A stretch of DNA of 64,000 nt. Origin: Torpedo marmorata (Eukaryota). The notes under the pieces were generated by a model that saw nothing but the letters and a program-made list of their open reading frames with translations, did no database searches and had not been told where the DNA came from. Location of the stretch: assembly GCA_977017645.1 (NCBI GenBank), contig OZ360220.1, forward strand, positions 282,410,001-282,474,000, given 5' to 3'. Shown here in pieces: positions 4,917-63,244 of this stretch; the stretch's first letter is position 1; the number at the start of each line of letters is the position of its first letter. The position numbers were made by a program, and so were the translations under genes.

Positions 4917-6367
4917 ATTTATAATTCATGTGCCAAAGTTTTATTTCATTTTAAATTTTGTATTCTTAAAGTAAGGGAAGTTTGTTAAAATTATGCATTC
5001 TGTTGTGTGCCAAATATTGTCTTTGTCAAAACCTATGCCTGGCTTGCAAAATATTCTTTTAACTCTTATTCAATAATATGCCTAGTGGCAGGATTCAGGA
5101 ACACAGACTCTGAAGGGACTTTCTTTTGCTTCTATTCTCTTGGTAGGGGTGCTGGCCGAGTAAGTGCTTCTTCATGTGTCTACATGGGCATACAAAATAA
5201 AACAAATGTTGTACATTTGTGTATATGACAATAAATCCATCAATGATCACATATACCTTTTTTAATTTGGAGAGTAAAATAACCAAATTAATGCCCATTA
5301 AGAACCAAACTGAGAACTCTTGAATGGCAGTATTAGTCGAGATGTGCAAGGACATTTAACCCATCTTTCATCATGCAAGCAGATTTGGAACTGGAAAAAT
5401 TCAAGGCAAAAATTATATGTGATGGTACATGGATATCAGGATGCATAATACTTAATTAAAATGTTCTCTTACATCAGCCTAGCCCTTGAAGCTGACAGTA
5501 AGCTACTGCCTTGTGCCATTGGTTTGTAAAGTGAAAACAATTCTACAAAACAGTTTGGAAAATACCGGATCCTAACCTGGAGATACAGTAAAATCATGTA
5601 CAAAATCGAACAAGAGGGCGCCTTGGTATTTTTGTGCATTTGCTGTCCAAATTTTTCAAAGCAGAAATTATGGGCTTTGAACATTTAAACCTTGATGTGT
5701 TGCTGCTTTGCTTCCTATTAGTACAGTAATATACATAAGCCACCCAGCCATGGTTATGAATGTAAATGGCTGTAAGTTCAGTGCTGATATGTAATAAACT
5801 TTTGTATAGCTTTTAGACTGAATTATACAACTCACCCATTCATTTGCAGCCTGTGCATATGTTATTGGATTATTTTTAAATGATGTTGGTGAAATGATAG
5901 GATCTGCCTTTTTAAGATAGAAAACCCCCTTTAAAACTGATGAGGACAGTTTCATTTAAACTGAATCCATGACATAGATTTTCTGTAGAATGAGCAGAGA
6001 ATTTGCAAATGAATTCTAACACTTGCCAAAGAGAAAAGCAGCATGCTTGGCCGAATGATCACAATGCTATGTAGATGCTGAGGGGTTGCCTTGCTTGTAT
6101 TCAAAGGTAGCGTAACATCCTTGGCTTGTAGTGTTTCATTCTACTGAAGTCCTTGGGTTTCATTGTGTTTGATTATATAAATTTTCATCAGGTCCAGAGT
6201 CCATTTAAAACCTTTTGGGGCCACTCCTTTCCATTCCTATCACTATGCCACTGCCACATGGGGGAGGAAAACAGGTTCTGATGAAGTCTTGGATGTTGGT
6301 TGAAAAGCATGATTGTGTGAAGTTGCAAATCAGCATAACATCTATCCTAATTACTGGAAGGATTTTT

Positions 6368-6875
6368 AAAAAAAAAAATATTTTATTTAAATTTTTAAAT
6401 CACAAAATACATAAAATAATTTTGCATATATTTCAAAAATACATGTGATCTACATTTTCTCCCCCCCTTCCCACCCTCCCCTCCCCTCCCTAACCCCTAT
6501 ATCCCCACTACTCTAAAAATAAAATAAAATATAGTAAAAGAGAAAAAGAAAAAGGAAAGATAGAAAAATAGAATGAGGAGACAACAAACTTAAAACTAAT
6601 TTACCTTAGAGGGTATTTTCGCCAGTGGATCCGATATCTAGAGAATTTAAATTGTTAAACCCATAATCCTCATATATGGGCCCCAAATTTTCAAGAAAGA
6701 ATGATATTTATTTCGTAAGTTATGTAATTTTTTCTAATGGTATACATGAGCGTAACTCTGCATGCCATCGTTCTAAACTTAAATCCACATCTGACTTCCA
6801 AGTAATAGCTATACACTTTTTTGAAACTGCTAATACTATACGTAGAAATTCTACTTGGTACATATTTAATCTATT
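6368..6875 (-). mobile_element. L1-clade LINE, 5'-truncated 3' end
   Basis: 14-bp TSD CTGGAAGGATTTTT at 6354-6367 and 6876-6889. ORF2 C-terminus and 3' UTR are homologous to the other L1 copies here. Confidence 0.85.
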
Positions 6876-7049
6876 CTGGAAGGATTTTTTGACATCAAAT
6901 GATCCATCTGATCACATCAATGTTTAGCTATCCTGCACCAAATCATGAATGATGGTGGATGATGAAATAACTAATGAAAAGAGCAGTATTGGGGAAGAGC
7001 CTGGCATTTGAGTGCAAAAGAGAATGCTCGATAATTATAATTTCCAGCC

Positions 7050-7685
7050 CTCTTCACCGTCCACAGGAATCAATCCCAGGACTCCCTTGTCCATTCATCC
7101 CTCCTTGCACTCGCCTCTCTGTCATGTCTGGCATTTCCCCAATGCAATTGCAGGAGGGGCAAAATTTGCTCTTACACCTCCTCCCTTACCTCCAGCTAGG
7201 GACCTAAACAGCCCTTGCAGGTGATGCTGATTTACATTCACCTCCTCCATTTGGTGTTCCAGATGTGACTGCCTCCTCACCCAAAAGACAAAGGGCAGAA
7301 AGGGCAACCAATCTGCAGAGCACATGCCATTTCAATTTCCCAATCTATTCCCACATCAACCTCTCCATTCTTGGCCTCCACTGACAGGGTGAGGCCTTGT
7401 GCAAACTTGAGGACCAACACCTCATATTCTGCCTGTGAAGTCTGCATCCCAATGGTATGAACATTGAATTTTCCAATGTAGGTAACCCACACCCTCTATG
7501 TTCCCCACCTTTTCCAATCCACATTTGGTCTTTCCCACCCCCGTTCCATCCACCCACTTCTACCAACACATTTCACTCACTGAATCCCCAACCTTCTGGT
7601 TACCTTTCTCCTAATGGATCCCTTTATTACCTCATCAGACTCCCAATACCTTGTTTTTTCTGTCTGTCTCTCTATGCTGAATAAG
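7050..7685 (+). mobile_element. Degraded Penelope-like element 3' fragment
   Basis: Diverged similarity to the 23206-24210 copy (…GCAAACTTGAGGACCAACACCTCATATTCTG…ATGAACATTGAATTTTCC). Boundaries approximate. Confidence 0.65.
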
Positions 7686-9111
7686 CGTTGATACCTGGGG
7701 AGCTCTTGCCCATGGCCGATCAAAGTGGAGAATGGGCATTAGGATAGTACTGAGACTCGAGTCCCTTCAGTGGAGTGCACCACCTATACTTCCTATTCGC
7801 CTGTCTCATCAAGCATCTTTTTCCCCACCTATGGTAATGTCTACGGTCCAATGTTGGCCTCATCAGTCTACTGTAGACTACAGGGATACACAAATTCCTT
7901 TGAATTCCAGCATTGATCAGTTAAAAAAGTACCCTGCAGTTATGTTCTTCCTTTTAAATTGAATAACTTCATACTTATTATTACCCCAAGGAAATTAGCT
8001 GGATGAGCACGAAGGTCTCCTTTTAAATAAATTGCAAACATTCAAAATGTTCACCAGTTTTTATTTTTTATCCACCACTTGATGGCACTATTTCTCCTTA
8101 TCCAAACTTAGCTCTCAACGCTATTGAACTATTAAAAGATTTCTCTCTATTAGTATTTCTATTAATATTTGACAATGTATCAATTTATTATCTTAAAATA
8201 CTTCTATTGTTACATTGTCTCAGATCATCACAATTTAGTTGCTGAAATTCATAAGCACAAATCACAATTTAAAAGCTTTATAACTTACTCAAAATTAGAA
8301 TAATAACCAATCAGAGACTATTTAACATAATATCAAATCAACATAATTCGTCAACAAACTCTGCCAAATGAGCAAAAACGCTTCCAATCAAATTACCCCG
8401 GTTAGTTTTGGGGATGAGAATTGATGAATTTTTGACGCTGGTTGATTATGACTAATTTTGAACATACAATAATCCTGATACTGTATTTAGCAATCACCTG
8501 GAAATGTAACGTTTCCTCTGTGAGTGTGGACGGATGAGAGGGAAGCACACTGAAGGAGAAACATTGAACAAAGAAGCAATGCAGAAATTTACCATCAAAA
8601 TCTGTTGATCTACATGGATACTGATCAACCGCAGGTGACCTGCAGTTAAATGTTAAATGCTTTGTCCTAACCCTCATGCGTTAATAACGTGGACCATTGG
8701 GGATACTAAATTATTGCCAACAGGTGTCAGTATTGGGGGAAGGGCCTCACATTTGATAAACAGCACTTACATTTGAAAAGTTTCTGCAACTTGATACAAA
8801 TAGACAGGGCCAGTAGGAATAAAAATTGAAAGCTGCTGTGAACAATAAAGATATTGGCATTATTTTAATTCATTATCCTCTAAATGTGCACAGCTGAGAA
8901 GCTGGAGATTACTCATCTGTATTCATAAAACCAGGGACAGCAAAAGGAAACATACCATTGTACAAAATCTTTCTTTGGTTCCTTTTGGAATCTTGAGTCC
9001 ATTTCTTTTCTATTTTGGTGGCTTTATAAAATTCAGAGGAGGGTGACAAGAAGGATTCACAGCTTACACCCCCATTGTTATTCAAAAACTGAGGTTCTAT
9101 ATAGTTTAGAG

Positions 9112-47500: not shown

Positions 47501-49453
47501 ATCAGTCAATTAGTAGTTCTCACTGCAGTTTTGTGTTTTGCTGTTGTTAACCCATTGAGTCCTGAGGGACAATTTCACTTTTCATAATCAGCACAGATGC
47601 GTTGGATGTTTAAAAAAAATGTGCTAAATTATTTTCAGAAGACGGCATTGGTTTTGAACACTAGCAGCAATTCTGAAGGAAAGATAAGTCCTTTACTGAT
47701 CCCTATTGAAACAGGAAAGAGGAATGAAGAGAAATCTAAATAGTTTTCATACTTGATTCCAGCACATTACAAAGTGCACCTGGTTCAATGCCTTGCTGGC
47801 CTGTGTTAAAGTTGGCTAATACCCGATAAATGTAGGAGCCAGCAGTGATCAAAGGATTCAGCACATACTGTACTTCCGTGGGAGTGTTGACAGAATAAAT
47901 TTTCTGCACATCAAGGCAAAATTGTTAAGCTGTGAGAACCAGAAAGCTGAACATCATAAGAAGATAGAAAGGAGCAAATGCCATTCATTTCATCTGGCTT
48001 GTTTAATCCAAATCATTGCTGAGGAGCTTCTCAGAAAATATTTAGATAGGGAACGAAATCAAGGGAGGCAATCTCACCTCTTGTCCAGCTGAGAGAAAGC
48101 ATTCAAATTACTTGCATACTTCCCTGGAGCTGATCGGTTTTGATTTCCATCTGTTTATTTTATTCATTTGCACATAACAGGTATCACTGTCAAGGCAACA
48201 ATTAGTCTCATCCCTAATTGACCTTAAGAGTCAGAGTGCTGGTGAGTCATCTTCTTGACTCCTTGCCATCCATGTGGCACAGCTACAGCCACAGTGGCTT
48301 TCCATTGAGGGTTCCCGGTTTTTAACCCAATAATGATAAAAGATGCCACTGCCTCCAATAGCATTCAGTGGTATTGCTATTGATGAATCCTGCAGCAGAG
48401 TTTGAAAGTAAACACGAAAATCTGTAGACACCGTGGTTGAAGTAAAAAATTGGCTCATCCAGAAGCAAAGTCAGAATGCTCAAAATAGCCTTTAATCAGC
48501 ATAGCACCCACATTCTGGTAAAACCCTTCAAAAATTTAACTTTTGTAATGTTATTTGGGTTTTATGATTGGAAGCAAAATAAAATAGCACATTAGACAGA
48601 TATGATGTTCCATATTTTGGTTTCTTATTCTCAAGGATTTGCCTGTGTTTATTTTCCAGACATTATCATTGAAGTGAAGGTTAAAATAGAAAGAAAATTA
48701 CTGGTTGAAAATTGTTTGTAAATACACAGCTAACTTTCCTGGTTATTTTTTCCTACCTTCTCGGCCACCTTTTTCCTAAACCTGCTATGTCTGATGAACA
48801 TCTCTAATCATGAAATTGAGATTTTAATTAGAGTCTTAGAGTCAAAGAGTCATGCAATGTGGAAATACTCCCTTCGGCCCAACTTGCCTACACAGATTAA
48901 AAAGCCTTGCCTACACTCGTCCCTAAACTAGCCGGTGTTTGGCTCATATCCCCCTAAACCTATCCGATCCATGTATCTGCTCAAATATTTCTTGAATGTT
49001 TGAACAGTACCAGCCTCAACCGCCTCCTCCAGCAGCTTGTTCCATACATCTACCACCCTCTGTGGGGAAAAAAAGTTACCCCTCACTTTCCTATTAACTC
49101 TCTCCCCCCTCACCTTAAACCTATGTCGTCTGGATCTCGATTCCCCTACTCTGGGCAAAAGACTCTGTGCATTCACCTGATCTATTACTCTCACGATTTT
49201 GTATATCTCTATGAGATCACCCCTCATCCTCCTGTGCTCCAAGAAATAAAGCTTTATCCTGCACAACCTCTCCTGATAGCTCAGGTCTGTGAGTCCATGC
49301 AGCATCCTCATAAATCTTCCCTGAACTCTCTTCAGCTTGACAACATCTTTTCTATAGCATGGTGACCAAAACTGAACGCAAACCTCCAAATGTTGCCTTA
49401 TCAATGTTTTGTACAACTGCAACATAACCTCCCAACTTCATACTCAATACTTT

Positions 49454-49959
49454 TTTAAAAAAAAATATTTTATTTAAAATTTTTAAATCACAAAATACAT
49501 AAGGCAAAATATAAAATTACCAAAATACATGTGATACATTTTCTCCCCCCAACCACCCTCCCCACCCTAACCCTCCCACCCCTACTAATCTATAAAGTAA
49601 AAGAAAAAAAAAGATAGATTAAGGAGAAAGTCAATCTACAAGAAAAAAACACTATAATCTAAATCTATTGTGGAAAATAGGTTTACCAGTCTGATCCGAT
49701 ATCAGGAGATCTTCAAATTTTTAGACCAACTGCTTTTATATATGGGCTCCACATTTTCAAAAAGAAATGATATTTATTACGTATATTATAAGTAATTTTT
49801 TCAAGTGGTATACATGAACGAAGTTCTGCATGCCATCTTTCTAAACCTAAATCTACATCAGATTTCCAATAATAGCAATGCATTTCTTAGCAACAGCTAA
49901 AGCAATTCTCAAAAACTCTATCTGATACATATTTAATTTCGTCATAATACTAAATTTGC
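49454..49959 (-). mobile_element. L1-clade LINE 3' end
   Basis: 15-bp TSD CATACTCAATACTTT at 49439-49453 and 49960-49974. Confidence 0.9.
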
Positions 49960-50562
49960 CATACTCAATACTTTGACCGATGGCCCATTTGCCAAAAGTG
50001 TTTTTGACTACCCTATCTAGTTGTAATTCCACTTTGTAGAAACTATGTACCTACAGAATATTCATAGATCCCTCTGCTCTACAAACTCCCCAAATCCCTA
50101 CCATTCACTGTGTAGGTCCTATCCATGTTAGACTTCCCAAAATGTAACACGCCACATTTCTCTGTATTAAATTCCATCAACCATTCTTCTGCCCACCCGA
50201 TCAGGTCCCCAAAGGCTCATCCATGAACACTTCATCCATTTGCCCTTCCCGATTTCCCAAGGCTAGATCAAGCGTTGCCTTCTCCCATGTGGGACCCTCT
50301 ACATATTTCCAGAGGAAACTTTCCTGACTGCATCTGACAAATTCTACCCTGTCTTAACCTTTCACACTATGACTTTCCCATTGAATATTTGGAAAGTTAA
50401 AATCCCTACCATGACGACCATATTTGACCTACAGCTGGCAGCAACTTCCTGGCATACTTACTCCTCTAATTCCCGTTGACTATTTGGGGACTTGTACTAC
50501 ACTCTCAACAAGGTGATCCTGCCTTTCTTGTTCCTCAGCTCCACCCATATAGCCTCACTAGC

Positions 50563-51140
50563 TGTAATTACTTACCTTGGTCGCGGCGCTCTGATGTCTC
50601 GGCGGGTTACGGAGGAGTCGTGGTGTTTGTAGGCCGTGTTCGGCCTATTTGGTACTCTGCGCATGCGCTAGAGTGCCGACGGGCGCATGCGCAGTTGGGA
50701 ATGACGGCAGTGTGCGCGGTGGAGTGTGCGCGGTGGAACGTGCGCGGTGGAGTATGCGCGGTGAAATAGGCGCATTGAGCTTGCGCGAATGGGGAAGAAG
50801 AATAGGAAAAAGATGGCGACGTAGGAGGGTGAGTGAGATCGCCATATCTTTTATTGACCGTTTCATTGAGCGTTTCATTGAACATTTAAACTAGCTTTAT
50901 TATGGTTTAAAGTAATTTAATTGAACATCTAAATACAGTCAAAGGAATCGTTTAAAGGAACTCATTAAACATCGTTATCAAGAACTGTTTATATTTAAGT
51001 CATTGAAGATTGCTGCAAGTCACGTGTGTAAATAAAGTTTTTGAACATATCGGACTTTGTTAGTAAATTAATTGAAACACGTCAAAGACAAGTATCTCAC
51101 TTAGCCTCCAAGTGACTATTGTTGGATCAAAGTCACTATA
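50563..51140 (+). repeat. BEL 5' LTR
   Basis: Starts TGTAA and ends CACTATA. Aligns to 61768-62330 at offset 11190 with about 14 substitutions counted by eye. Confidence 0.9.
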
Positions 51141-51255
51141 TTATTAGTCAATAAAAGAGGTTGTTTGGAACAGAAAATTGAAGGAAAGAAGATAGAATAA
51201 TCTCTCTGTGCTTTGGACTGATATTTAAAATAAAATGGTGGCCATCTTGGAGATG

Positions 51256-51476
51256 AAAAGTAAACACGAAAATCTGTAGACACCGTGGATGAAGTAAAAA
51301 ACACAAAAGCTGGAGAACTCAGCAGGTCAGTGTCTTTTATGTAGCAAAGGTAGAAATACATAACCGACGTTTCGGGCTTGAGCCCTTCATCATTGATGAA
51401 GGGCTCAAGCCCGAAACGTCGGTTATATATTTCTACCTTTGCTACATAAAAGACACTGTTTGACCTGCTGAGTTCT
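51256..51476. mobile_element. Penelope tail insertion forming a palindrome
   Basis: 14-bp TSD CCATCTTGGAGATG (51242-51255, 51477-51490). Arms are inverted around 51393. Confidence 0.85.
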
Positions 51477-51835
51477 CCATCTTGGAGATGCCTCGAGTTG
51501 GGGGCAGTTTGTAATCCACATCCATCTGCCATGAGTAACAGCCAGAGAGGGATTTAAAGCTTCAAATCTTATAGTAAAGTGTACTATAAATACGTTGGAG
51601 AAACCATTTTTGGAAAATCAGCGATATTATTGACGGATGTTGTGGTTGAAACTCGTTTGTGAATAGCAGCACATTACAGTCATCTGAAGTGGTAGGCATA
51701 TAAGTCTGTGGACTCCTTCTGTGTATCTTTGGCAAGTTAGAACACAGATTGGATTTGCTTCCGCAAGTCCATTGGGGACTGTTGATTTGGCTAGTGTTGT
51801 GTAGGCTTGAAGGACAGTGGAACAAGACGAGTAAA

Positions 51836-54800
51836 ATGACCACAGCAGCCTCTGATGCAGCAGCCACTGATGTATCAGCAGCTGACGCAGCAACCGCTGA
51901 TGTTGCTGTTAAGGACCAATGTATGGAAGACATGAAGGTTGCGGATATTAAAGAAGAATTGAAGCGACTGAAAAAGGACATAAGTGGAAATAAAAAGGTT
52001 CTCATCGCAAGATTGAAGCTGGCAAAGGAAAAAAAGGCAGCTTCGTTAGATGAACAAGAAGATAACGTGGAAATGGCTGAAATTGTGTCACCAAATGAAG
52101 AGGATGAAGATGCAAAGGATATACAATTTGAATTGGAGAAAGAGGTACGTATGAAGACAACATATGACGTGCAGGATGAAATACAAGCAAGTGACAGTGT
52201 CTCAAATGCTGAAAGCAGGAGAAGCAAACAAAGTTCTGGTTTGAGCTCCAGAGTTTCTCGTACTTCAAGTTCTGCATCGTCACGTACAAAGATTGACGTT
52301 GACTTGGCCGCTCTTCTTACACAACAAAAAACGCTTAAGGATAAACATATTTTAGAACAAAAGGAGGAGCAGATAAGACAAAAGGAGGAGCAGATAAGAC
52401 AAGAGAAGGAGCAGCTAAAGCAGCAACAACAGCGACCTCCCAGTAGCCAACCATTTCAATTCCGGGTCACACTCCCACACTCACATGTCTGTCCATGGCC
52501 TCATGTACTATCCCACCCAGACTACCCGCAAATTGGAGGGACAACATCTCATATTCCGTCTCGGCACTCTCCAGCCAGATGGCATTAACATTGACTTTTC
52601 TGCTTTCCACTAAACCTGCTTGTCGTTCCCTTCCCCTCCCCCCTCACCTGTCCTTCCTGTTTTTCTCCAGCTACCTAGCCATCCCTCCTCCCCCTCTTTG
52701 CTGCTGTCCCCTCCCTCCTTTCTCCACCTATCATCTCCTGCCTTTGCCATCCCCCTTCCCCCCTCACCCTTTTGTTCGGACGCCTACCGGCATTTTCTCA
52801 TACTTTGATGAAGGGCTCAAGCCCGAAACGTCGGTTATGTATTTCTACCTTTGCTACATAAAAGACACTGTTTGACCTGCTGAGTTTCTCCAGCATTTGT
52901 GTTTTTTACCTAAAGCAGAGAAAGGAACAGCAGGAGCTGGAAGCAAACATTACTATTGCCAAGGCAAAAAAGAAAGCAATAGAAGGCTCAATGGTATCTG
53001 GTGCTAGAAGTAAATTATCTAAAGTGTCTGATAATAAAAGGTCATATTTTAAAAATGAGTCACAGGAAAAGAAACCAACCAAAAGGGTAGATATTTTAGA
53101 ACCAAGGATACAAGACTTGCATATACAAGGACAAATCTTACAAGAGCATATTGGTATCAAGTCACATGTACCAGTTGTAACATCTGCAGACAAAGCTGCG
53201 GCTTGGGTTCAGTCGAATGATGCAGCTTCCTTGTTATTTGAGTCAAGTATCAGAAATATGGAAGAAACTACACCAGTGAGGTTTCCAGATACATTACCTG
53301 CAACAAGAGACGGTGAACAGAGCAATGTATTGTCATCCAAGGAAAGACAAAATGAAATCGCTGCATCATTGATTCAGTTACAGTCTCTCTCTTCTTTACC
53401 CAAGAAAGAGATACAAATTTTTGATGGAGATCCACTTCAGTATCAATCATTTATCAGATCTTTTAAACGCAATATTGAAAATAAATGCCAAGATCGTGAT
53501 GAATGTCTTTATTATTTGGAAATGTTCACAAAGGGACATCCAAAAGAACTGGTAAAGAGTTGTCAACATATGTCCTCAGAAAGAAGATTAGACAGATCTA
53601 AGGCTTTACTGGAACAACATTTTGGCAACATGTATCGAATTGCTTTAGTTTATATGGATAAAGCTCTTAAATGGACATCAATAATGGACAAAATGATGTA
53701 AAGGATCTACAAGAATATACTCTATTTTTAAGAGGATGTTGTAATGCCATGGAAGATATCAATAATATTCGTGAGCTTGAAGTGCCTGGTAATATGAGAA
53801 TCATCTTAGAAAAATTACCTTACAAGTTATGGAATAGATGGAGAAATTTGGCTTGTGATTTACAAGGAAATTACGGTCGAAGAGCTACCTTAAAGGATTT
53901 GGTAAATTTTCTTGAACGACAGGTGTACATTGAAACAGATCAAATATATGGAAATACCAGAGACAATTCAATGGGTAAAGATGTAAGGAGGTCTAACTCA
54001 CAGCCTAGTCCGAAATTGAAAAGGAGTACTTTTGCTACTAATGTGTCAGTTATAAATAAAGAAAAGGACAAAGTAAATAAGGAAAAGGAAAGTTTGCCTG
54101 ACGAAAACAGTTGTTTGTTCTGTAAAGGTGGACATTCTTTGGAAATGTGTTTACGATTGGAAAAGAAGGAACATAATGAAAAGATTGCTTTCTTAAAGGA
54201 AAATGGAATATGTTTTAGCTGTCTGTGTAAAGGGCACATCAGTAAAAACTGCGAGAAGCGAATTAATTGTAACATATGCAATTTGAAACATCCTAGAATT
54301 TTGCATATCCATCACAGAAACAAGAAATTGGAAAAGGAACAAACAGAAACAAAGGAAACAACAGAAAACAATGTTATAACCTCGGTTCAGACAAGTGGTC
54401 TTACCGGGGCCGGTGTGGATAACTGCAAACTTTCGATCGTGCCTGTACAAGTCAAGACCAAGAAAGGGGATGCAACAGTACAAACATATGCATTTCTAGA
54501 CCCAGGCAGCACTGCAGCTTTTTGCATGGAAGGACTAATGAATAAACTTAATATTCAAGGAAGAAGATCAAGAATTATGTTAAAAACCATGGGACAAGAA
54601 AGGGTCGTTGAAACCAGCATTGTTTCAGGCTTAGAGGTTGCTGGATTGGATGACAAAAAATTTTGTGATCTTCCAAGTTTATATACTCAGAAGACTATGC
54701 CTGTGCATGAAAGAAATATTCCTCATCAAAAAGATATCCATCATTTAGCTTATCTGTGGAAGGTTTATTTACCTGAAATTAATTCTGAGATAGAAATGCT

Positions 54801-54949
54801 GATTGGTTTAGATGTGCCAAAGTTTTTGGAACCACTAGAAGTAATACAGAGTAGAAGGAATGGACCTTACGCTATTAGAACCAAGCTTGGTTGGACAATC
54901 AATGGACCATTGGAAAGAAATAATGATATTGCTCAGGAACAGTTAGCGA
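51836..54949 (+). pseudogene. BEL gag-protease (SAP-like N-terminus, coiled coil, DUF1759-like region, 3 zinc knuckles, aspartic protease); interrupted by Penelope, with one frameshift near 53685
   Basis: The frame is restored when 52424-52918 is removed. Motifs: FDGDPLQY, CLFCKGGHSLEMC, CFSCLCKGHISKNC, CNICNLKHPRILH, AFLDPGST, GPYAIRTKLGWTINGPL. Confidence 0.85.
52424..52909 (+). mobile_element. Penelope-like 3' fragment inside BEL gag
   Basis: Near-identical to 23690-24172. 9-bp TSD CTAAAGCAG (52415-52423, 52910-52918). Confidence 0.9.
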
Positions 54950-56335
54950 AAAAGGTACCAGAAGAATTTATATACAAATGGAATTCAAAACTATTGACAG
55001 GTGTTAAAGAAACGCCGCTATTAAAACATTTGATTAATGCTTGGAATAAGGTTAATGATGAGATAGGGTTGAAAAGAAATATATCACCCAAAGTGCCTTT
55101 GATACAGAATAATCTTATACCATTTACAAAAGATAATCAATTTTTAAACATTTGGTCACTGAATGGAATAAAAAATATAGAAGATTGCTATGAAGGAAAC
55201 CAATTGATGTCATTTATACAACTACGGAATAAATATGGAATACCTAATAATGCTCTTTTTTGCTATTTTCAATTAAGAGGTTATTTAAGAGAAAAATTAG
55301 GTCCAGATATGTTGCTACAAGATTGTAGTGAGGTAGAAACCCTTATTAGGAAAGGAAATATTAAGAAATTTACTTCTATAGTGTATTCTTTGCTACAAAG
55401 GGGAGCTTTAAAACGAGGACTTCATAAATCTAGACAAAGATGGGAACAAGATCTTAATGTTACAATTGATGAAAAAAGATGGTCAGATTTATGTTTAGAT
55501 AGTATGACTAATACTGTTAATGTAAGATATAGATTGGTACAATATAATTTTTTACATCAATTATATCTTACACCACAAAAATTGAATAAGATCAAAGTTA
55601 CGCTATCAAATAGATGTTTTAGATGTGGCGAAGAAGAGGGAACTTTTTTACACTCAACGTGGTTATGTCCAAAAGTTAAAGGTTTTTGGATAGAGTTAGG
55701 AAACCGGCTAAAACAAATTACAGGTGTTACATTTCCACAGAATCCTGACTTATTTTTATTGGGAAATGTGGAAGGAACTAGACCAAAATTGAAATTATCT
55801 ACATGGCAATTGAAATTTGTAAAAATTGCAATAGCAGTAGCAAGGAAATGTATAGCAGTAACTTGGAAATCAGATATAAATTTAAGTATGGACAGATGGA
55901 ATTCAGAGATGCGGAAAGAATAACATATAATATGAGGAATAAATATGGGGTATTTTTGCAAATTTGGCGTCCATTCATCCAATTATTAGGTATGAATATT
56001 TAAATGTGTTGCCCTACATCCTAGACCCTGCTGACTCTCTTAAATTTAAAGAATAAATATTGTTGAATGTCTCGCACCGACCGAGCCGTGGACCCGTACG
56101 GGTGTTTTCGATAAATATCAATGTCTTCTCCTCTTTTTTCTTTTCTTTATTTTTAGTAAGGGGAGGGAGTAAGGGATGGGAAGGGTGGAGGGTGGTTTGT
56201 TTTAGCGAGGGTGGGTTGAGATGGGGTTAGAACCACTGTAATACAAATTTTGTTTGTATTGGATTTGTTAATATTTACTATATATTTTGTATTATTGTGA
56301 AAAATTTGAAAAGTTAAAATAAAATATATAAAAAA
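54950..56335 (+). mobile_element. L1-clade LINE 3' fragment (second subfamily) inside BEL
   Basis: 15-bp TSD AGGAACAGTTAGCGA (54935-54949, 56336-56350), ORF2 C-terminus (CFRC..H..W.C), A-tail. Confidence 0.92.
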
Positions 56336-56486
56336 AGGAACAGTTAGCGATAAATATTAATAGAATTTTGGTTGTGAAAGTTGATGAGTTAAGCAAAGAG
56401 CAAAAAACTGTGAATAAGAAAATCACTTTTGAAGAAAAGAAAACAGATCAATGTGAAAATAAATCAAGGGTATTTAAAACAATATT

Positions 56487-59400
56487 TTAAAAAAAAATAT
56501 TTTATTTAAAATTTTTAAATCACAAAATACATAAAATAAAATATAAAATTATCAAAGTATTTGTGATACATTTTCACCCCCCTCCCCCCTCCCCTCCCCA
56601 ACCCGCCCAACTCCACTAATCTAATAAAAATAAAAATATAAAATAAAAATAGAAAAAGAAGAAGAAAAAAGAAAGAAAAAGATAGAGTAAGGAGAATGCC
56701 AATCTATAAACTAATTCTATTATGGAAGTCAAGTATGCCAGTAGATCCGATATCCAGAGATCTTCAAATCCTTAAACCAACAACTTTCATATATGGGCTC
56801 CAAATTTTTAAGAAAAAATGATATTTGTTACGTAAACTATATGTAATTTTTTCAAGTGGTATACACGAACGAAGTTCTGCATGCCATATTTCTAATCCTA
56901 AATCTAAATCAGATTTCCAAGTAATAGCAATACATTTCTTTGAAACAGCTAAAGCAATTCGCAAAAATTCTATTTGATACATATCTAATTTCATCTTAAT
57001 ACTAAATTTTCTAATATCTCCAAACAAAAAATATCATAGGATCCATTGGAAATGTAATCTTAAATACTTTATCTAAAATTTTTTTAACTTTCAACCAAAA
57101 ATCATAAACTTTTGGACAAAACCATGTAGAATGTACAAAAGACCCTTCCTCTTTATTACATCTAAAACATAAACCTGATAATGTCAGATTAAATTTCTTT
57201 AGTTTTTTAGGTGTTAAATATAATTGATGAAAAAAATTGTATTGTACTAATCTATATCTAACATTAATAATCTTCATCATACTTAATTTACATAATTCTT
57301 TCCAATTCAAATAATAATCTTTAAAAGAATCATTTATTTCTCGAGGTTTATAAGTTATTTCTCTAGAGTTCTTTTCCTTATAGCATTTATAGTTCTAGAA
57401 ATTTGATCTTTTTTTAATTGCCATGCCAAGACTTTATGAGCTCTTTCCCCTAACTCATAGTATCTTTGTTTAGTTCTTTCAATTAATTTTTCCATTTTAT
57501 ATGTTTGTAATAAATTGTAATGTAATTTCTTCCCAATTAAATGGTTCCTTTTTTGAATTGATCTGATTTTTTGTAAATCTTTTTCCAAACATTCAATCTA
57601 CTTCTCTAAATTTTCCACTTCCCTAAGATAATCTTTCTTAATTTTTGCTGAATAACTTATTATTTGACCTCTTAAATAAGCTTTTAAAGCTTCCCAAATA
57701 ATAAATTTATTATCAATAGAATTAGAATTTATTTGTAAAAATTCCTGAATTTCCCTTCTCATATAATCACAAAAATCTTTTCTTTTTAATAAAGAAGAAT
57801 TGAATCTCCAGCTATATACAGTTTTTTCTTTTTCCGGAATTATACAAGATATTAATAAAGGTGAATGATCAGAAATTATTCTCACTTTATAAGATGCTTG
57901 TGTTATTCTATCTTGAACCTGTGAAGACAATAAAAATAAATCTATCCTAGAATATGAATCATGTCTGAAAGAATAAAAAGAATAATCTTTTTCTCTAGGA
58001 TTCAATTTCCTCCAAATATCTATTAAATTTAAATCTTTCATCAAAGTAAGAACTCTTTTAGCAATTTTAGTTTTAGCAAGTGATCTTGAAGTTTTATCCA
58101 TTATTGTATCTAGACAACAGTTGAAATCTCCCCCAATTAAAATATTCTCATTAGCTTCTGACAAATGTAAAAAAGAATCTTGAATAAACTGTTCGTCATC
58201 TGCATTTGGCACATACATATTCATATGTGTCCAGAGTTCTGAATAAATCTGGCAATGTATCAAAACATATCTACCTGCCACATCTATAACTACTGATTGT
58301 ATCTTAAAAGGTAACTTTTTATTAATTAATATAGCTACCCCTCTTGCTTTAGAATTAAATGAAGAAGGCACCACTTGACCAACCCATTGTCTTTTTAACT
58401 TTTGATGTTCCGAATCTATCAAATGCGTCTCTTGTAAAAAAGCTATATCTACATTCAACTTTTTAATATATGCTAAAGTTCTCTTTCTTTTAATCGGATT
58501 GTTAAGCCCATTTATATTAATACTTACTACATTTATTTTCTTACTATCCATCGTAACTAAATTTTATCAAATCTCTTTCGATCAAATCTACCCGCTTTTT
58601 CCTCCAAAATTGTAAACTATTTGGCATCTCCTTAAAGAAATTGAAGAAAAATAAAAAAGAAAAGAAAAAAGAAAACCCCGATGAATAAAATACTGGTACA
58701 ATTACCCCAGTATTACCCCCCTCCATTGCTCGAGAAGTGGCTCTCGCCACTAAAGTGGTGTATGGCTAGGAAGAAGTGACAAAAAGTCCACCTCCCCCCA
58801 ACAGATTTTACAAAACATTATTAATCATAACTTCATTTAACTGTTCCAATGTCCACATTATCTTGATCTTCTTCAATCTGGACTTGAATCCTCTCCTCTT
58901 TTCGTGAAGAACTTGGCGAAGAAATTCGTAGTGGTGAACTCTCTTGACCTTGTTGATAAACCATCTCATCTTGATCTTTGATCAAATAAGGAAGAGTTTG
59001 TGCATGCCTTAGCGCTTGTTGGCGATCCATAAACGTAGTGAAATGATTTCCTTCAATTTGAATACTCAAAGCCGCAGGATATTTAAAGGAAAACTTATAT
59101 CCTTTTTGCCAAAGAAGTGCTTTGTTGGATTAAATTCTTTCCGACTTTTAACTACCATAGAGCTCAAATCTGGATAAAAGAGCACTCTATTTCCATTAAT
59201 CATCAGTGGAGATCCATCCATTCTTACATTTTGAATGGCTGCTCTTAATATTTTTTCTCTATCTTGATATCTGAGACATTTAATCAAAACTGGACGTGGA
59301 CTTTGGTCCATCTGTTGATTTCGTCTCCCAATTCTGTGTGCTCTTTCCAACTCCACTGGCTTATCCAAAGACAGAACCTGCAGAAGCCAATCTTGAAAAA

Positions 59401-60355
59401 ATTCAGTTATATCTTGTTTTTCAAAATTTTCAGGAAGTCCTAATATTTTAATGTTATTTCTCCGGCTTTGATTCTCCAATTGATCCAATTTTTGTAGAAG
59501 TTGATTTCTTTGTTGTTCCCAACCTGTAAATGAATCTTCTATTTTATCAACTCTATCCTTATGATCCACCAATTCATCATAATTATTTTTAACATCTTGC
59601 TCAATTTTTTGAACTTTAATTTTCACTGTACTCACAGTATTTTTTCAAACTTATCATATCTTGCTTCACCTCTTTAATTTCTACTTCCATTGAATTAAAT
59701 CTAAATTCCATATGTGATTCTAACTTTGCAATGGTCTGAAGTATTTGTTGTTGATTTGTTTTTATTGACATGAATTCTTTAGCTGGGTCCTCAGGGTACT
59801 CCTCAAATTCTTCCATCTCTTGTTCCAGGATTTGTTGCATTTTCTTATCTTTTCCTTCTGATTCTGACGATGTTTCCTGCTCCACAGCGTATAGCAACGT
59901 CTGTGGAGCATCTCTTCTGCTGTCAGATTCGTCTGACAGTTCACGTTGTCTTTCGCGCATGCGCGTCGTTTCGCGCATGCGCGGCTGCTCCAACATCATT
60001 TTTGTAGTTTTTTTTTTAGTGCCGGCGCCATCTTCCCCAGCTCCCTGGGAGAGCAGCGCCGGCGCTACAGTCTCTCTCAGCGCCTTCGATCGTGCCGATT
60101 TCGGAGGAAGAAGTACCTGAGTCCCAGGCTCCAACAGACAGGTAGGCCGTTTTCCTTCTTGAAGTAAAGTTAATTGTAGCATAATTTTCTTTGTTTTTTG
60201 TTCTCTCGTTTTTATAGAGGCCATTGCTAAATAACTAATAATGACTTTTAATTTATTCTTAAACTGTATAAAGTTATTTATAAAGGCTTCTTAACTAAAT
60301 CTGTGGGGAGAGGTGTATTCTCACGTCCTCTACCTACGCCATCATGCCACGCCCC
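56487..60355 (-). mobile_element. L1-clade LINE with intact 5' end, frameshifted ORF1 (60224-58833), ORF2 APE (58551-57598), RT deleted, 3' end present
   Basis: 15-bp TSD ATTTAAAACAATATT (56472-56486, 60356-60370). ORF1 motifs ENQSRRNNIKILG and ERAHR. APE motifs LQETH, GDFN, SRIDL, SDH. Jumps to the ORF2 C-terminus near 57308. Confidence 0.92.
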
Positions 60356-60370
60356 ATTTAAAACAATATT

Positions 60371-61340
60371 GAATTAATTATTTTCATCAGAAATGGATGA
60401 AAGTGAAGTATTAGAAGATGTTGCAAATAATACTATTGATTATTCATGTGTAATTGAATCAGATACAGGAATAAAACAAGTGACTAAAAACAAATCTGAA
60501 TGTAAATTTTGTAGTTCAGAGGTTACAACAGACAAAGCTAATGAAGAAATATTGCAATGTGATGTAAAACTGGAGAACACAGAAAATTGTGCTGATGGAA
60601 TAAAGAATAATGTGAATGATAATTTAATGCAATTGAATTCAGAGAACAAAATGTTGAAAGGGGAATTGTAAATATTAGATAATCATGAAAACAGTAAACA
60701 GAAAGATTTCATTGTAAGTAAAATTCGCAAAGTCAGAAAGCGGAAGAAAAGAATAACTGCTGAAGAAATGAATACAGTTATTGAGGAAAGAGATTCAGCA
60801 TTATCAAAATGTAAATGGTTGGAGGAAGAGATTAATATTTTGAAAGAGAACAAGTTATTGGTTAATAACACAAAACAGTTGACTTTAAAAAACAATCAAG
60901 AATGTAAATTTAATGTTCAGCTATTAACGATGCAGAAAGAATGTGATATTGCATTGCAGAAATGTAACAAGCAAGATGAAGTAATTAAAAAATTTCAAGT
61001 TTACCGCAGCATGGTATTTTGACTTCAGATCAAATTATTAATTTCTCGGAAAGAAATGAGACTGAATTGAAAGTTGCAAAATTGGATTTGGAATTGCAGG
61101 AAAAGGCAATAGAAACCAGAGTGGTTAAAGAGACCTGTTTATTAAAATCGAAAGGATCAGATAAATATTCAAATTCTAGTTCTAAGAGTTTAAATTCTTC
61201 ACCTGAGAAGTGAAATGCTGAAGAAAAGAATAAAGTGAAACGACATGCTGAAGAAGTGCCTCGTGTTAAATTCAAAAGAAAAACTGTATCTATTTTGTCT
61301 GAGGAAGATTTGAGGTTTACTGGTCGACATTTTAACTCAG
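60371..61340 (+). pseudogene. Coiled-coil coding cargo inside BEL, partly MIPOL1-like (60708-61010; probably also 61050-61140)
   Basis: RITAEEMNTVIEERDSALSKCKWLEEE..NNTKQLTLKNNQE..LLTMQKECDIALQKCNKQDEVIKKFQVY resembles recalled MIPOL1 RITAEEMSALIEERDAALSKCKRLEQE..NNMRHLTAENNQE..LLSMQQARETAVQQYKKLEEEIQTLRVY. No introns. Identity is from memory, not a search. Confidence 0.75.
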
Positions 61341-61364
61341 ATTCTGGAGATAAAACAACTTTGA

Positions 61365-61548
61365 AGAGACATTGTAATTATTCTGGATAATTCAACTCCA
61401 AGAAACTCCTGGTAACTTGAAAAAAATTATTAAGACTATTCAGGACAAAAGGGGACTTGTGCGACAAGTGCGAATTAAAACTAAGACTGGCTTTCTAAAT
61501 AGACCTATTAACAAGGTCTGCTTTCTGTTGGAGACGGAGGAACTTTAA
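61365..61548 (+). pseudogene. BEL integrase C-terminal remnant (DUF5641-like)
   Basis: DIVIILDNSTPRNSW..IIKTIQDKRGLVRQVRIKTKTGFLNRPINKVCFLLETEEL*. Confidence 0.8.
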
Positions 61549-61746
61549 TAAATACAAACTAACTTTATTTGTTGTTGTATACTTTACAGGTTACAGACTT
61601 TTGTTGATTCAGAGTTATGTTAAACTCTGGTCTTATGAAGAAAGAAGATTTGTATATTGTTTGAATGTTATGGTTATTGTTATTTATAATTTATTGTGTA
61701 ATTATTATTCAAGATATTGCGTCTAATTATAATAATTAGGGGCCGG

Positions 61747-62330
61747 TATAAGAGCCGTAAGCTTAATTGGTCGCGGCGCTCCGATGTCTCGGCGGGTTAC
61801 GGAGGAGTCGCGGTGTTTGTAGGCCGTGCTCGGCCTATTTGGTACTCTCCGTATGCGCTAGAGTGCCGATGGGCGCATGCGCAGTTGGGAATGACGGCAG
61901 TGTGCGCGGTGGAGTGTGCGCGGTGGAATGTGCGCGGTGGAGTATGCACGGTGAAATAGGCGCATTGAGCTTGCGCGAATGGGGAAGAATAATAGGAAAA
62001 AGATGGCGACGTAGGAGGGTGAGTGAGATCGCCATATCTTTTATTGACCATTTCATTGAGTGTTTCATTGAACATTTAAACTAGCTTTATTATGGTTTAA
62101 AGTAATTTAATTGAACATCTAAATACAGTCAAAGGAATCGTTTAAAGGAACTCATTAAACATCGTTATCAAGAACTGTTTATATTTAAGTCATTGAAGAT
62201 TGCTGCAAGTCACGTGTGTAAATAAAGTTTTCGAACATATCGGACTTTGTTAGTAAATTAATTGAAACGCGTCAAAGACAAGTTTCTCACTTAGCCTCCA
62301 AGTGACTATTGTTGGATCAAAGTCACTATA
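61747..62330 (+). repeat. BEL 3' LTR, preceded by PPT-like AGGGGCCGG
   Basis: Direct repeat of the 5' LTR. The first ~20 nt differ (TATAAGAGCCGTAAGC vs TGTAATTACTTACC). Confidence 0.88.
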
Positions 62331-63244
62331 CTAGCCGACCCATCTGTAACGTCACCTCCAATCACTGCCGTGCCATCCTCCTTAACCAATAATGCAACAG
62401 CCCCTCCTCTTTTACCGTCACCTCTGTCCTCCTGAAGCACCTGTATGCTGGAATATTGAAGTTCCAGTCCCGCCCCTCTCTTAACCAGGATTCCATAATG
62501 GCCACACCATCCCAGTCACATGTGTTTATCCATACCCTAGGTTCATCTGCCTCACCTGACAAACCTCGAGCATTAAAATAGGCACAATTTAAACCAACAG
62601 TCCTTCCTCGTTCCCTGCCTTTCTCCTGCCCACTAATTTTCCTCTCATCATCCTCCATACCAACTTCTAACGTGTCACCAGACTCTGTCCTTCATAGGAT
62701 ACCACCCCCTGCCAATCTAGTTTAAACCCACCCGTGTAGCACTAGTGAACCTGCCTGCCAGGATGTTGGTCCCTCTCTGGTTCAAGTGCAGCCCGTTCCA
62801 CTTGAACAGGTCGCCTCTCCCCCAGAAGAGATCCCAAAATTTATAAGATAATTTCTGAGGTTTATTTTTTTGAGAGCTATAAGCAGAATAACTGAAATGA
62901 AAAGACAATGACAGATGGACTGTTAGGATTTTTTTAAATGCCTCAAATTTATTGTTAATTACCTGAAAACTGAAACTATACAAGTCACAATAATATTCTT
63001 ATCAACCATGATGTTTGAATAATCGTGCTTCTGTAAAGAAGTTTTACAGAACACCAGCTCTTGTTTTAAATGTTGTTTTGTAAAATTCCACAAAAGAGCC
63101 TTTTGGCAATAGGTTGAACAACTACAATTCATCTGCTCCTGATGGTGTATCTTATACAGTTAATTGCTCTTTGTTGTGCCCATTTTTAAAATTAATCTGT
63201 CCAGTATACTTGTCCCAAACTACTCCAAACGCACCTCTGATGAT

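Follow-up and report, generated by a model that had tools for sequence, protein, structure and literature searches.

Long terminal repeat (LTR) retrotransposons of animals can capture host transcripts. In the LTR-mediated retrocopies described by Tan et al. (2016; PMC5131818, cited here and below for the accessible part of its text), pieces of mRNA replace part of the internal open reading frame (ORF) of the element, short runs of shared bases are found at the switch points, and the copies spread further as nonautonomous elements; multigene chimeras also occur, including one Pao BATUMI case and one BEL18 case. Here we describe a stretch of 64,000 nucleotides from Torpedo marmorata (GenBank assembly GCA_977017645.1, contig OZ360220.1, positions 282,410,001 to 282,474,000 of the forward strand), which we refer to as the window. 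It contains a BEL/Pao element (window positions 50563 to 62330) whose pol core is replaced by host-derived sequence. Taken together, our observations make it probable that this element belongs to a pol-less BEL/Pao family of ∼23,000 copies that carries a spliced cargo from three genes, with its MIPOL1 part derived from a circular RNA, and that is copied by helper elements while the cargo travels as a passenger.

Like the retrocopies of Tan et al., the element has an intronless host piece in place of part of its internal ORF and no L1 hallmarks. Unlike those cases, which have few copies and in whose accessible text the word "circular" does not appear, it combines a back-splice junction, ∼23,000 copies, intermediates, and a long-kept reading frame. 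The maize LTR element Bs1 combines exon fragments from three host genes that have shared switch points, exists in one to five copies, and has one piece out of frame (PMC5131818), whereas the carrier described here is a vertebrate BEL/Pao element in which each of the three pieces is in frame and one is exon rotated. Mouse circRFWD2 pseudogenes (Dong et al. 2016, PMC4897178) number 33 copies with a reversed exon-exon junction, no poly(A), and LTR-enriched flanks; their mechanism was called mysterious, and a coding fusion was not described. As in that case, a noncolinear junction at exact splice sites, without poly(A), points to a circle; unlike in that case, the putative circle-derived piece is part of a complete LTR element, where it shares the gag-pro frame and is accompanied by two other genes. 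Acutely transforming retroviruses are defective and helper dependent; in their genomes, spliced host sequence takes the place of pol and continues the frame of gag. In contrast to these, the element has no env, its host part bears no sign of functional selection, and it is a germ line transposon, not an infectious virus. LTR gene capture, multigene chimeras, and circular RNA-derived pseudogenes were thus known separately, and we did not find their union, the preserved intermediates, or the copy number described. Neither the element nor a circle captured in the ORF of an LTR element was found in the literature outside subscription papers and Repbase/Dfam, and the family may be present in a repeat library. 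The initial annotation of this DNA had regarded the combination as undescribed, which agrees with our search except that mRNA capture by BEL/Pao had been reported (PMC5131818).

The window element shows the BEL/Pao hallmarks: an LTR pair (563 of 581 positions identical in the aligned part), a polypurine tract, and a perfect 5-bp target site duplication (TSD), CTAGC, on both sides, all as annotated before. Its LTRs end in TG...TA rather than TG...CA, as do those of two pol-bearing copies, L139 and L140. L140, from the same genome, has one ORF with SAP, RVT_1, Pao RNase H (PF05380), rve, and DUF5641 domains. The gag-pro part and the integrase tail of the window element are 84 to 93% identical to L139/L140. 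Aligned to L140, the gag-pro match (90%) ends at base 4917 and restarts at base 8108; L140 positions 4918 to 8107 have no counterpart in the window, so that ∼3.2 kb of pol is missing and ∼1.1 kb of other sequence stands in its place. This alignment revealed no reverse transcriptase (RT), RNase H, or integrase core between the protease and the integrase tail, in agreement with the initial annotation, and the window element is therefore nonautonomous. Its parts are listed below by window position, with strand where assigned. Subfamily A is compact and includes the window copy, subfamily B is older and longer with more host-like cargo, and Ea to Eg are exons of the host MIPOL1 gene.

50558 to 50562: left TSD, 5 bp; same bases at 62331 to 62335
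50563 to 51140, plus strand: 5′ LTR, TG...TA; LTR family the same as that of A copies
51242 to 51490: later SINE-like insert in the leader, an inverted pair; 14-bp TSD
51836 to 54420, plus strand: BEL gag with SAP domain (PF02037, E = 3e-08), DUF1759-like region, and zinc knuckles
52415 to 52918: later SINE-like insert within gag; 9-bp TSD
54421 to 54949, plus strand: BEL aspartic protease and start of linker, from the alignment to L140 and the protease tree
54950 to 56350, plus strand: 5′-truncated L1 insert private to the window copy; zf-RVT match, 15-bp TSD
56351 to 56398, plus strand: final BEL-derived linker preceding the cargo; 56336 to 56403 aligns to L140 4850 to 4917
56399 to 56486, plus strand: captured BRCA1 piece, part 1; 89 to 92% identical to B copies
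56487 to 60370, minus strand: L1 insert private to the window copy, with ORF1 and endonuclease but no RT region; 15-bp TSD
60371 to 60703, plus strand: captured BRCA1 piece, part 2, with stops at 60375 and 60669; 65% identical to BRCA1 protein P0005, residues 270 to 362; host exon at C61:25.488 Mb
60704 to 61009, plus strand: MIPOL1 exons Ee (from base 66), Ef, and Eg, intronless; 90, 79, and 83% identical to the host exons
61010 to 61132, plus strand: MIPOL1 Ea remnant and Eb, which lie upstream of Ee to Eg in the host gene; start of Ea deleted here
61123 to 61339, plus strand: captured Elongin A piece, shortened; 78 to 90% identical to B copies, whose longer piece matches Elongin A
61366 to 61546, plus strand: BEL integrase C-terminal tail, out of the cargo frame; 84% identical to L140 from base 8108, where L140 has DUF5641
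61734 to 61746, plus strand: polypurine tract abutting the 3′ LTR, as in L140
61747 to 62330, plus strand: 3′ LTR, pairing with the 5′ LTR
62331 to 62335: right TSD, CTAGC

The gag assignment also draws on PF03564, found on the natural copy L032, and on the 90 to 93% identity of the window gag to L139/L140. The fused gag-pro-cargo frame terminates within the Elongin A piece, leaving the integrase tail outside it.

Searches with the cargo identified three host donors. Window positions 60672 to 61019 matched MIPOL1 (66% identity to Narcine bancroftii, E = 1.8e-32; all four hits, from 107 candidates, were MIPOL1), a significant match that goes beyond generic coiled-coil similarity. The MIPOL1-like nature of the cargo proposed earlier was thereby borne out, but MIPOL1 is not the sole donor: BRCA1 sequence precedes it (65% over 93 amino acids, pairwise E = 2e-36), and a second MIPOL1 piece and Elongin A follow. 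In B copies, the upstream piece corresponds to BRCA1 residues ∼201 to 412 (79%, E = 4.6e-93), with eight of nine hits named BRCA1 and the ninth unnamed but with RING/BRCT domains, and the downstream piece corresponds to Elongin A (E = 7.5e-37; PF06881 domain); the window retains shortened forms of both. The A copy L042 aligns to residues 234 to 379 of P0005. None of the host genes lies on the window contig (C2); they are found on C40 (MIPOL1), C61 (BRCA1), and C41 (Elongin A), and among database matches their nearest relatives are those of N. bancroftii (91% for a MIPOL1 exon, 84% for BRCA1).

The introns of all three genes are missing from the cargo. MIPOL1 exons that span 206 kb in the genome's own gene are contiguous in the element copies, two ELOA exons 10.7 kb apart in the host are joined, and the BRCA1 piece extends past the acceptor of the large exon, its upstream part matching the protein and not the intron. 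All three captured pieces evidently derive from spliced RNA. The outer BRCA1 and ELOA joins were mapped by protein only; by eye, three to six bases are shared at five joins. The cargo ORFs of the window gave no significant Pfam match, although the same Pfam copy was also blank on true MIPOL1, and the BRCA1 piece had no usable match in the ESM Atlas. Protein searches with length ranges of 204 to 2000, 393 to 2000, and 30 to 665 returned no annotated chimeric protein, a weak negative given that repeats are masked in annotation. A simple pattern did not find an EF-hand motif in the window, and an earlier remark on CETN3, irrelevant to the result, was not confirmed. P0005 is the annotated Narcine BRCA1 isoform X2, with BRCT as its only precomputed domain. 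Where the RING domain would be expected, its residues 1 to 195 look like part of a retrotransposon Gag, and this Gag-like start is probably a gene model error. Besides the Elongin A gene on C41, a second two-exon PF06881 locus at C25:175318134-175337048 represents either a paralogue of Elongin A or a B copy that has been interrupted.

The order of the MIPOL1 exons in the element is rotated: part of Ee is followed by Ef and Eg and then by Ea and Eb, so that a donor is joined to an upstream acceptor. Exons Ea to Eg measure 136, 106, 130, 34, 171, 108, and 95 bases in the host (780 in total), and when read circularly they form 260 codons without a stop. In the window, the alignment stops exactly at the Eg donor (61009). 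The 40 bases past the end of Eg agree with the start of Ea at 28.0 of 40 positions in A (47 of 47 copies scored, 45 of them at at least 26) and at 35.7 of 40 in B (scored at the 27 of 37 loci in which the end of Eg was located, 24 of them reaching 26 or more), compared to 9.0 and 9.8, respectively, for the next exon in linear order. In B the Eg-Ea join is base perfect, and of the two acceptors in a NAGNAG pair it is the proximal one that is used. The exact 22-base junction occurs at 490 places in the genome, with no match for the control. The MIPOL1 piece is confined to the exons of the circle and lacks poly(A). One copy, L053, reads Ee48-Ef-Eg-Ea-Eb-Ec-Ed28 (28 of the 34 bases of Ed), which amounts to ∼727 of 780 nucleotides, or 93% of the circle. 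MIPOL1 circles have been reported in the mouse, by quantitative reverse transcription-PCR with divergent primers (PMC9888537), and in humans (PMC8783515), according to the accessible parts of these papers. It is thus highly probable, judging from the order and the joins of the exons, that a back-spliced circular RNA was the template of the MIPOL1 piece. The capture of intronless mRNA by template switching into a BEL element, as put forward in the initial annotation, holds as regards spliced RNA and BEL capture, but a linear mRNA does not give the rotated order.

The same junction could come from a linear RNA, either by intragenic trans-splicing or as the transcript of a lost tandem duplication of Ea to Eg; the sequence alone cannot separate these from a circle, and trans-spliced RNAs are often mistaken for circles (PMC10450196, accessible text). 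However, a linear RNA would be expected to bring flanking exons along. The upstream large exon outside the circle matched none of 81 loci, the downstream exon matched one of 81 with a weak stretch of 31 bases only, and in a genome-wide search with the downstream exon, all 49 candidates of which were scored, only the host gene matched. Furthermore, L053 contains nearly the whole circle and nothing else, and across the 320-kb host MIPOL1 locus each exon is present once. Back-splicing is also the usual source of such junctions. We therefore consider a linear template quite unlikely. It is still less plausible, in fact very improbable, that the template was switched twice on ordinary MIPOL1 mRNA, or that two chimeric RNAs recombined, with the breakpoints falling on exon ends by chance. 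Many template switches did take place in the element, but every other capture join falls within exons, the acceptor at this join is exactly one of the NAGNAG pair, and the odds that a donor and an acceptor would both be hit are, by a rough estimate, 3e-5 to 3e-4.

Several points weigh against a circular template. In the window copy itself the junction scores only 14 of 40 because the start of Ea is deleted, so that the case rests on its relatives. None of the copies examined passes more than one turn of the circle, which speaks for a linear RNA. Three bases are common to both sides of the back-splice join, as chance switching would allow, and the intron after Eg resembles the start of Ea by chance at 16.8 to 19.3 of 40 positions. 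L053 is a single copy among the pattern matches checked (one further match is unchecked) and may be a later recombinant instead of a first stage. L167, considered as a second copy of this type, proved unrelated. Weak matches to Ec 74 to 115 in ∼40 A loci (71 to 74%) were read as an internal repeat of MIPOL1 and not as an Ec piece. Tandem cargo repeats in L129 (99.8 to 100% identical) were rejected as rolling-circle copies, since the repeat unit is not the circle; these MIPOL1-cargo repeats (L129:7713-9089) give a 459-amino-acid frame and represent a local duplication or an assembly artifact.

The family is large. When the genome was searched at the protein level, 33,853 candidates emerged, and all 150 that were scored were 91 to 100% identical. 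A 22-base join pattern specific for A (with one mismatch allowed, it detected 46 of the 47 A loci and none of the 27 B loci) had 22,982 matches in the genome and none for the control. At 5.85 kb per copy, A would make up 2.2% of the 6.2-Gb assembly, an upper figure if many copies are partial. Subfamily B was found by searching with the N-terminal part of MIPOL1; its cargo is 91 to 98% identical to the host exons, compared to 73 to 90% for A, and its LTR pairs are further apart (median, 7.7% in 4 copies, compared to 3.45% in 14 A copies). The LTRs of A and of the pol-bearing relatives end in TA, and those of B end in CA. Among 20 copies viewed with wide flanks, 12 could be parsed, and of these 8 had perfect 5-bp TSDs, 3 had TSDs with one mismatch, and 1 had none, all TSDs being different. 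These data support transposition of the element as one unit, as had been supposed. They also leave a practically negligible probability to the alternative that a retrocopy inserted into one resident BEL copy that then lost pol. L1 inserts with TSDs of their own do occur in the window copy, but the cargo has neither its own TSD nor poly(A), and the same joins recur across tens of thousands of copies whose element TSDs differ.

Host MIPOL1 contains four A copies (L065, L072, L080, and L081) within 320 kb (C40:64.32-64.64 Mb); they sit in introns of that gene, three of the four on the gene strand. Five A-junction matches at a spacing of 4,964 bases (C1:1498244-1518121) form a tandem array of the element. 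Contigs from four runs, X1 to X4 (three studies, one presumed to be RNA), covered 29 to 30 of 30 bins of window positions 60355 to 62340, which has no bearing on expression. The A family appears in contigs with three organism labels, and X2 and X4, which come from one sample, have variants missing from the other two runs (X1 and X3); this hints weakly at a family present in several species.

Pol-bearing relatives are available in the same genome as potential helpers. A pol 22-mer of the closest ones has 1,182 genome matches, 19 times fewer than A, and some of them are young (LTR pairs 0 to 2.4% apart). In a protease tree of 42 rows, A branches from among pol-bearing copies and its group includes five of them (100/99 support), and B is placed with a different pol-bearing group, although the bootstrap of this tree had not settled. 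It is likely, given these relationships, that the A family is copied in trans by pol-bearing relatives.

The surviving variants suggest how the cargo was assembled. L133 (the wide form of L053; C59:59.656 Mb) and L134 retain bits of RT up to L140 base ∼5822 before BRCA1, and the first capture would therefore have departed the BEL RNA inside the RT region. RT is lost back to base 5072 in L129, L131, and L136 and to base 4917 in A. L053, which has more RT remnant, re-enters the integrase tail without Elongin A and is possibly, with L133, the first stage of the series. Host pieces would likely have been picked up by RT template switching. In this scheme, RT would have left the BEL RNA for BRCA1 mRNA and circular MIPOL1 (Ea to Eg, 780 nucleotides), yielding an L053-like form; Elongin A would then have replaced the end of the circle, giving subfamily B, and five in-frame deletions would have produced the compact subfamily A, whose gag-pro would have continued to recombine with a pol-bearing lineage. 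The B-to-A deletions measure 285, 24, 120, 81, and 195 bases, and for every one of them at least one of three copy pairs shows a length divisible by three; five such deletions have a 0.4% chance if independent. On the other side, two B copies in this count are frameshifted, and not every pair gives multiples of three. A tree of the BRCA1 piece, which has 29 rows and omits loci with fewer than 240 aligned bases, places host and B near each other and A at a distance of 0.2 changes per site. From the placements in this tree and in the protease tree, the cargo apparently has a single origin by descent, and gag-pro continued to be exchanged with helpers. At 14 amino acid sites where B agrees with the host and not with Narcine, no shared derived state was seen, since Pristis sides with the host in all, and nine sites have host-only changes; the capture would therefore date to the N. 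bancroftii split or earlier.

Two natural A copies, L031 and L032, have gag, protease, and cargo in one open frame of 1176 and 1211 amino acids, so that the Gag-Pro-MIPOL1-like fusion anticipated earlier does exist as an open frame, even though its cargo residues are under no detectable constraint. Between host and A, the ratio of nonsynonymous to synonymous substitution rates (dN/dS; kappa, 1.99) was 1.29 for MIPOL1 (p = 0.56, 147 codons) and 0.68 for BRCA1 (p = 0.28, 99 codons); neither differs from 1, and purifying selection on the captured coding part was thus not detected in tests that at 99 to 147 codons are low in power. Gag was constrained relative to L140 (dN/dS = 0.30, p = 2e-5). The protease was not significantly so (0.75, p = 0.48), and the copies had been picked as best protein hits, which favors open frames; both points count against our overall interpretation. 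For the latter reason, dN/dS values by variant class among A copies (private, 0.36 to 0.98, uncorrected; shared, 0.51 to 1.32, with few changes) were set aside. Since its residues are not conserved, the cargo is most likely a passenger, with selection acting on the open frame and not on the residues; the data lend no support to a MIPOL1-like role for the fusion.

Upkeep of the frame might keep the RNA stable and Gag produced, for example against decay of RNA with early stops. Because gag and pol form one ORF in L140, A RNA would make a Gag-protease-cargo polyprotein and need helper Pol. This polyprotein would coassemble with helper Gag-Pol, and the element would be reverse transcribed and integrated in trans. 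The out-of-frame integrase tail was likely kept for its RNA signals. As the main rival to this view, the cargo might aid spread, either as a coiled-coil stuffer standing in for Pol in the particle or as host-like sequence that blunts silencing by small RNAs, along the lines of a conflict model for gene capture in plants (10.1101/777037, accessible text). A outnumbers its closest pol-bearing relatives 19 to 1, the frame survived three captures and five deletions, and all three genes are partly retained in A. However, nonautonomous LTR elements often outnumber their helpers (PMC5131818), the cargo residues are not conserved, and the diverged A cargo is ∼47 times more common than the host-like B cargo, the opposite of what mimicry predicts. 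A cargo that aids spread hence seems rather improbable to us, and we retain a passenger cargo as the preferred interpretation. It also appears doubtful, on the present sequence data, that the circular MIPOL1 junction is translated within a Gag-protease-BRCA1-MIPOL1-Elongin A protein, that the cargo drove the spread over ∼2% of the genome, and that BRCA1 engages in small-RNA cross talk; if this were true, ∼23,000 sense-strand BRCA1 fragments would have been seeded that are able to cross talk with the host gene via small RNAs.

With a circular template for the MIPOL1 piece, the family would preserve, base by base, a fossil trace of an LTR element copying back-spliced RNA, the step left open by Dong et al., and it would date a specific circle to the N. 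bancroftii split or earlier. The family also documents a stepwise three-gene capture whose intermediates survive in the genome and makes up a measurable genome part (∼2% of 6.2 Gb if copies are full length). A 2026 preprint (bioRxiv 10.64898/2026.06.26.734816) ranks MIPOL1 first of the five most retrocopied genes in cartilaginous fishes and ties retrocopy numbers to non-LTR elements and selective filtering; in its main text, the part available to us, BRCA1, ELOA, and "circular" do not appear. This BEL family likely explains the top rank of MIPOL1. Retrocopy counts per gene can thus reflect one capture amplified by an LTR family and not many events or selection, and for BRCA1, MIPOL1, and ELOA of this lineage the copies will interfere both with the mapping of reads and with annotation.

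The window copy itself is damaged. The two L1 inserts had been correctly recognized: they have 15-bp TSDs at 54935/56336 and 56472/60356, and each site is uninterrupted in 47 of 49 other loci (including six copies represented twice). The stops at 60375 and 60669 are present as well, but they are not the only breaks in this copy, which also has the SINE-like inserts at 51242 to 51490 and 52415 to 52918 and a gag frameshift near 53686. The frameshift after the MIPOL1 stretch is due to a 31-base deletion near 61010. In the SINE-like insert of the leader, the repeat pair is arranged head to head. The minus-strand L1 (56487 to 60370) keeps ORF1, the endonuclease, and the C terminus of ORF2, and the flanks of its missing RT region lie in one frame (57011 to 57394); given its TSD and A-rich end, it may belong to a nonautonomous L1 family. 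A related L1 3′ end is found at window positions 49446 to 49957.

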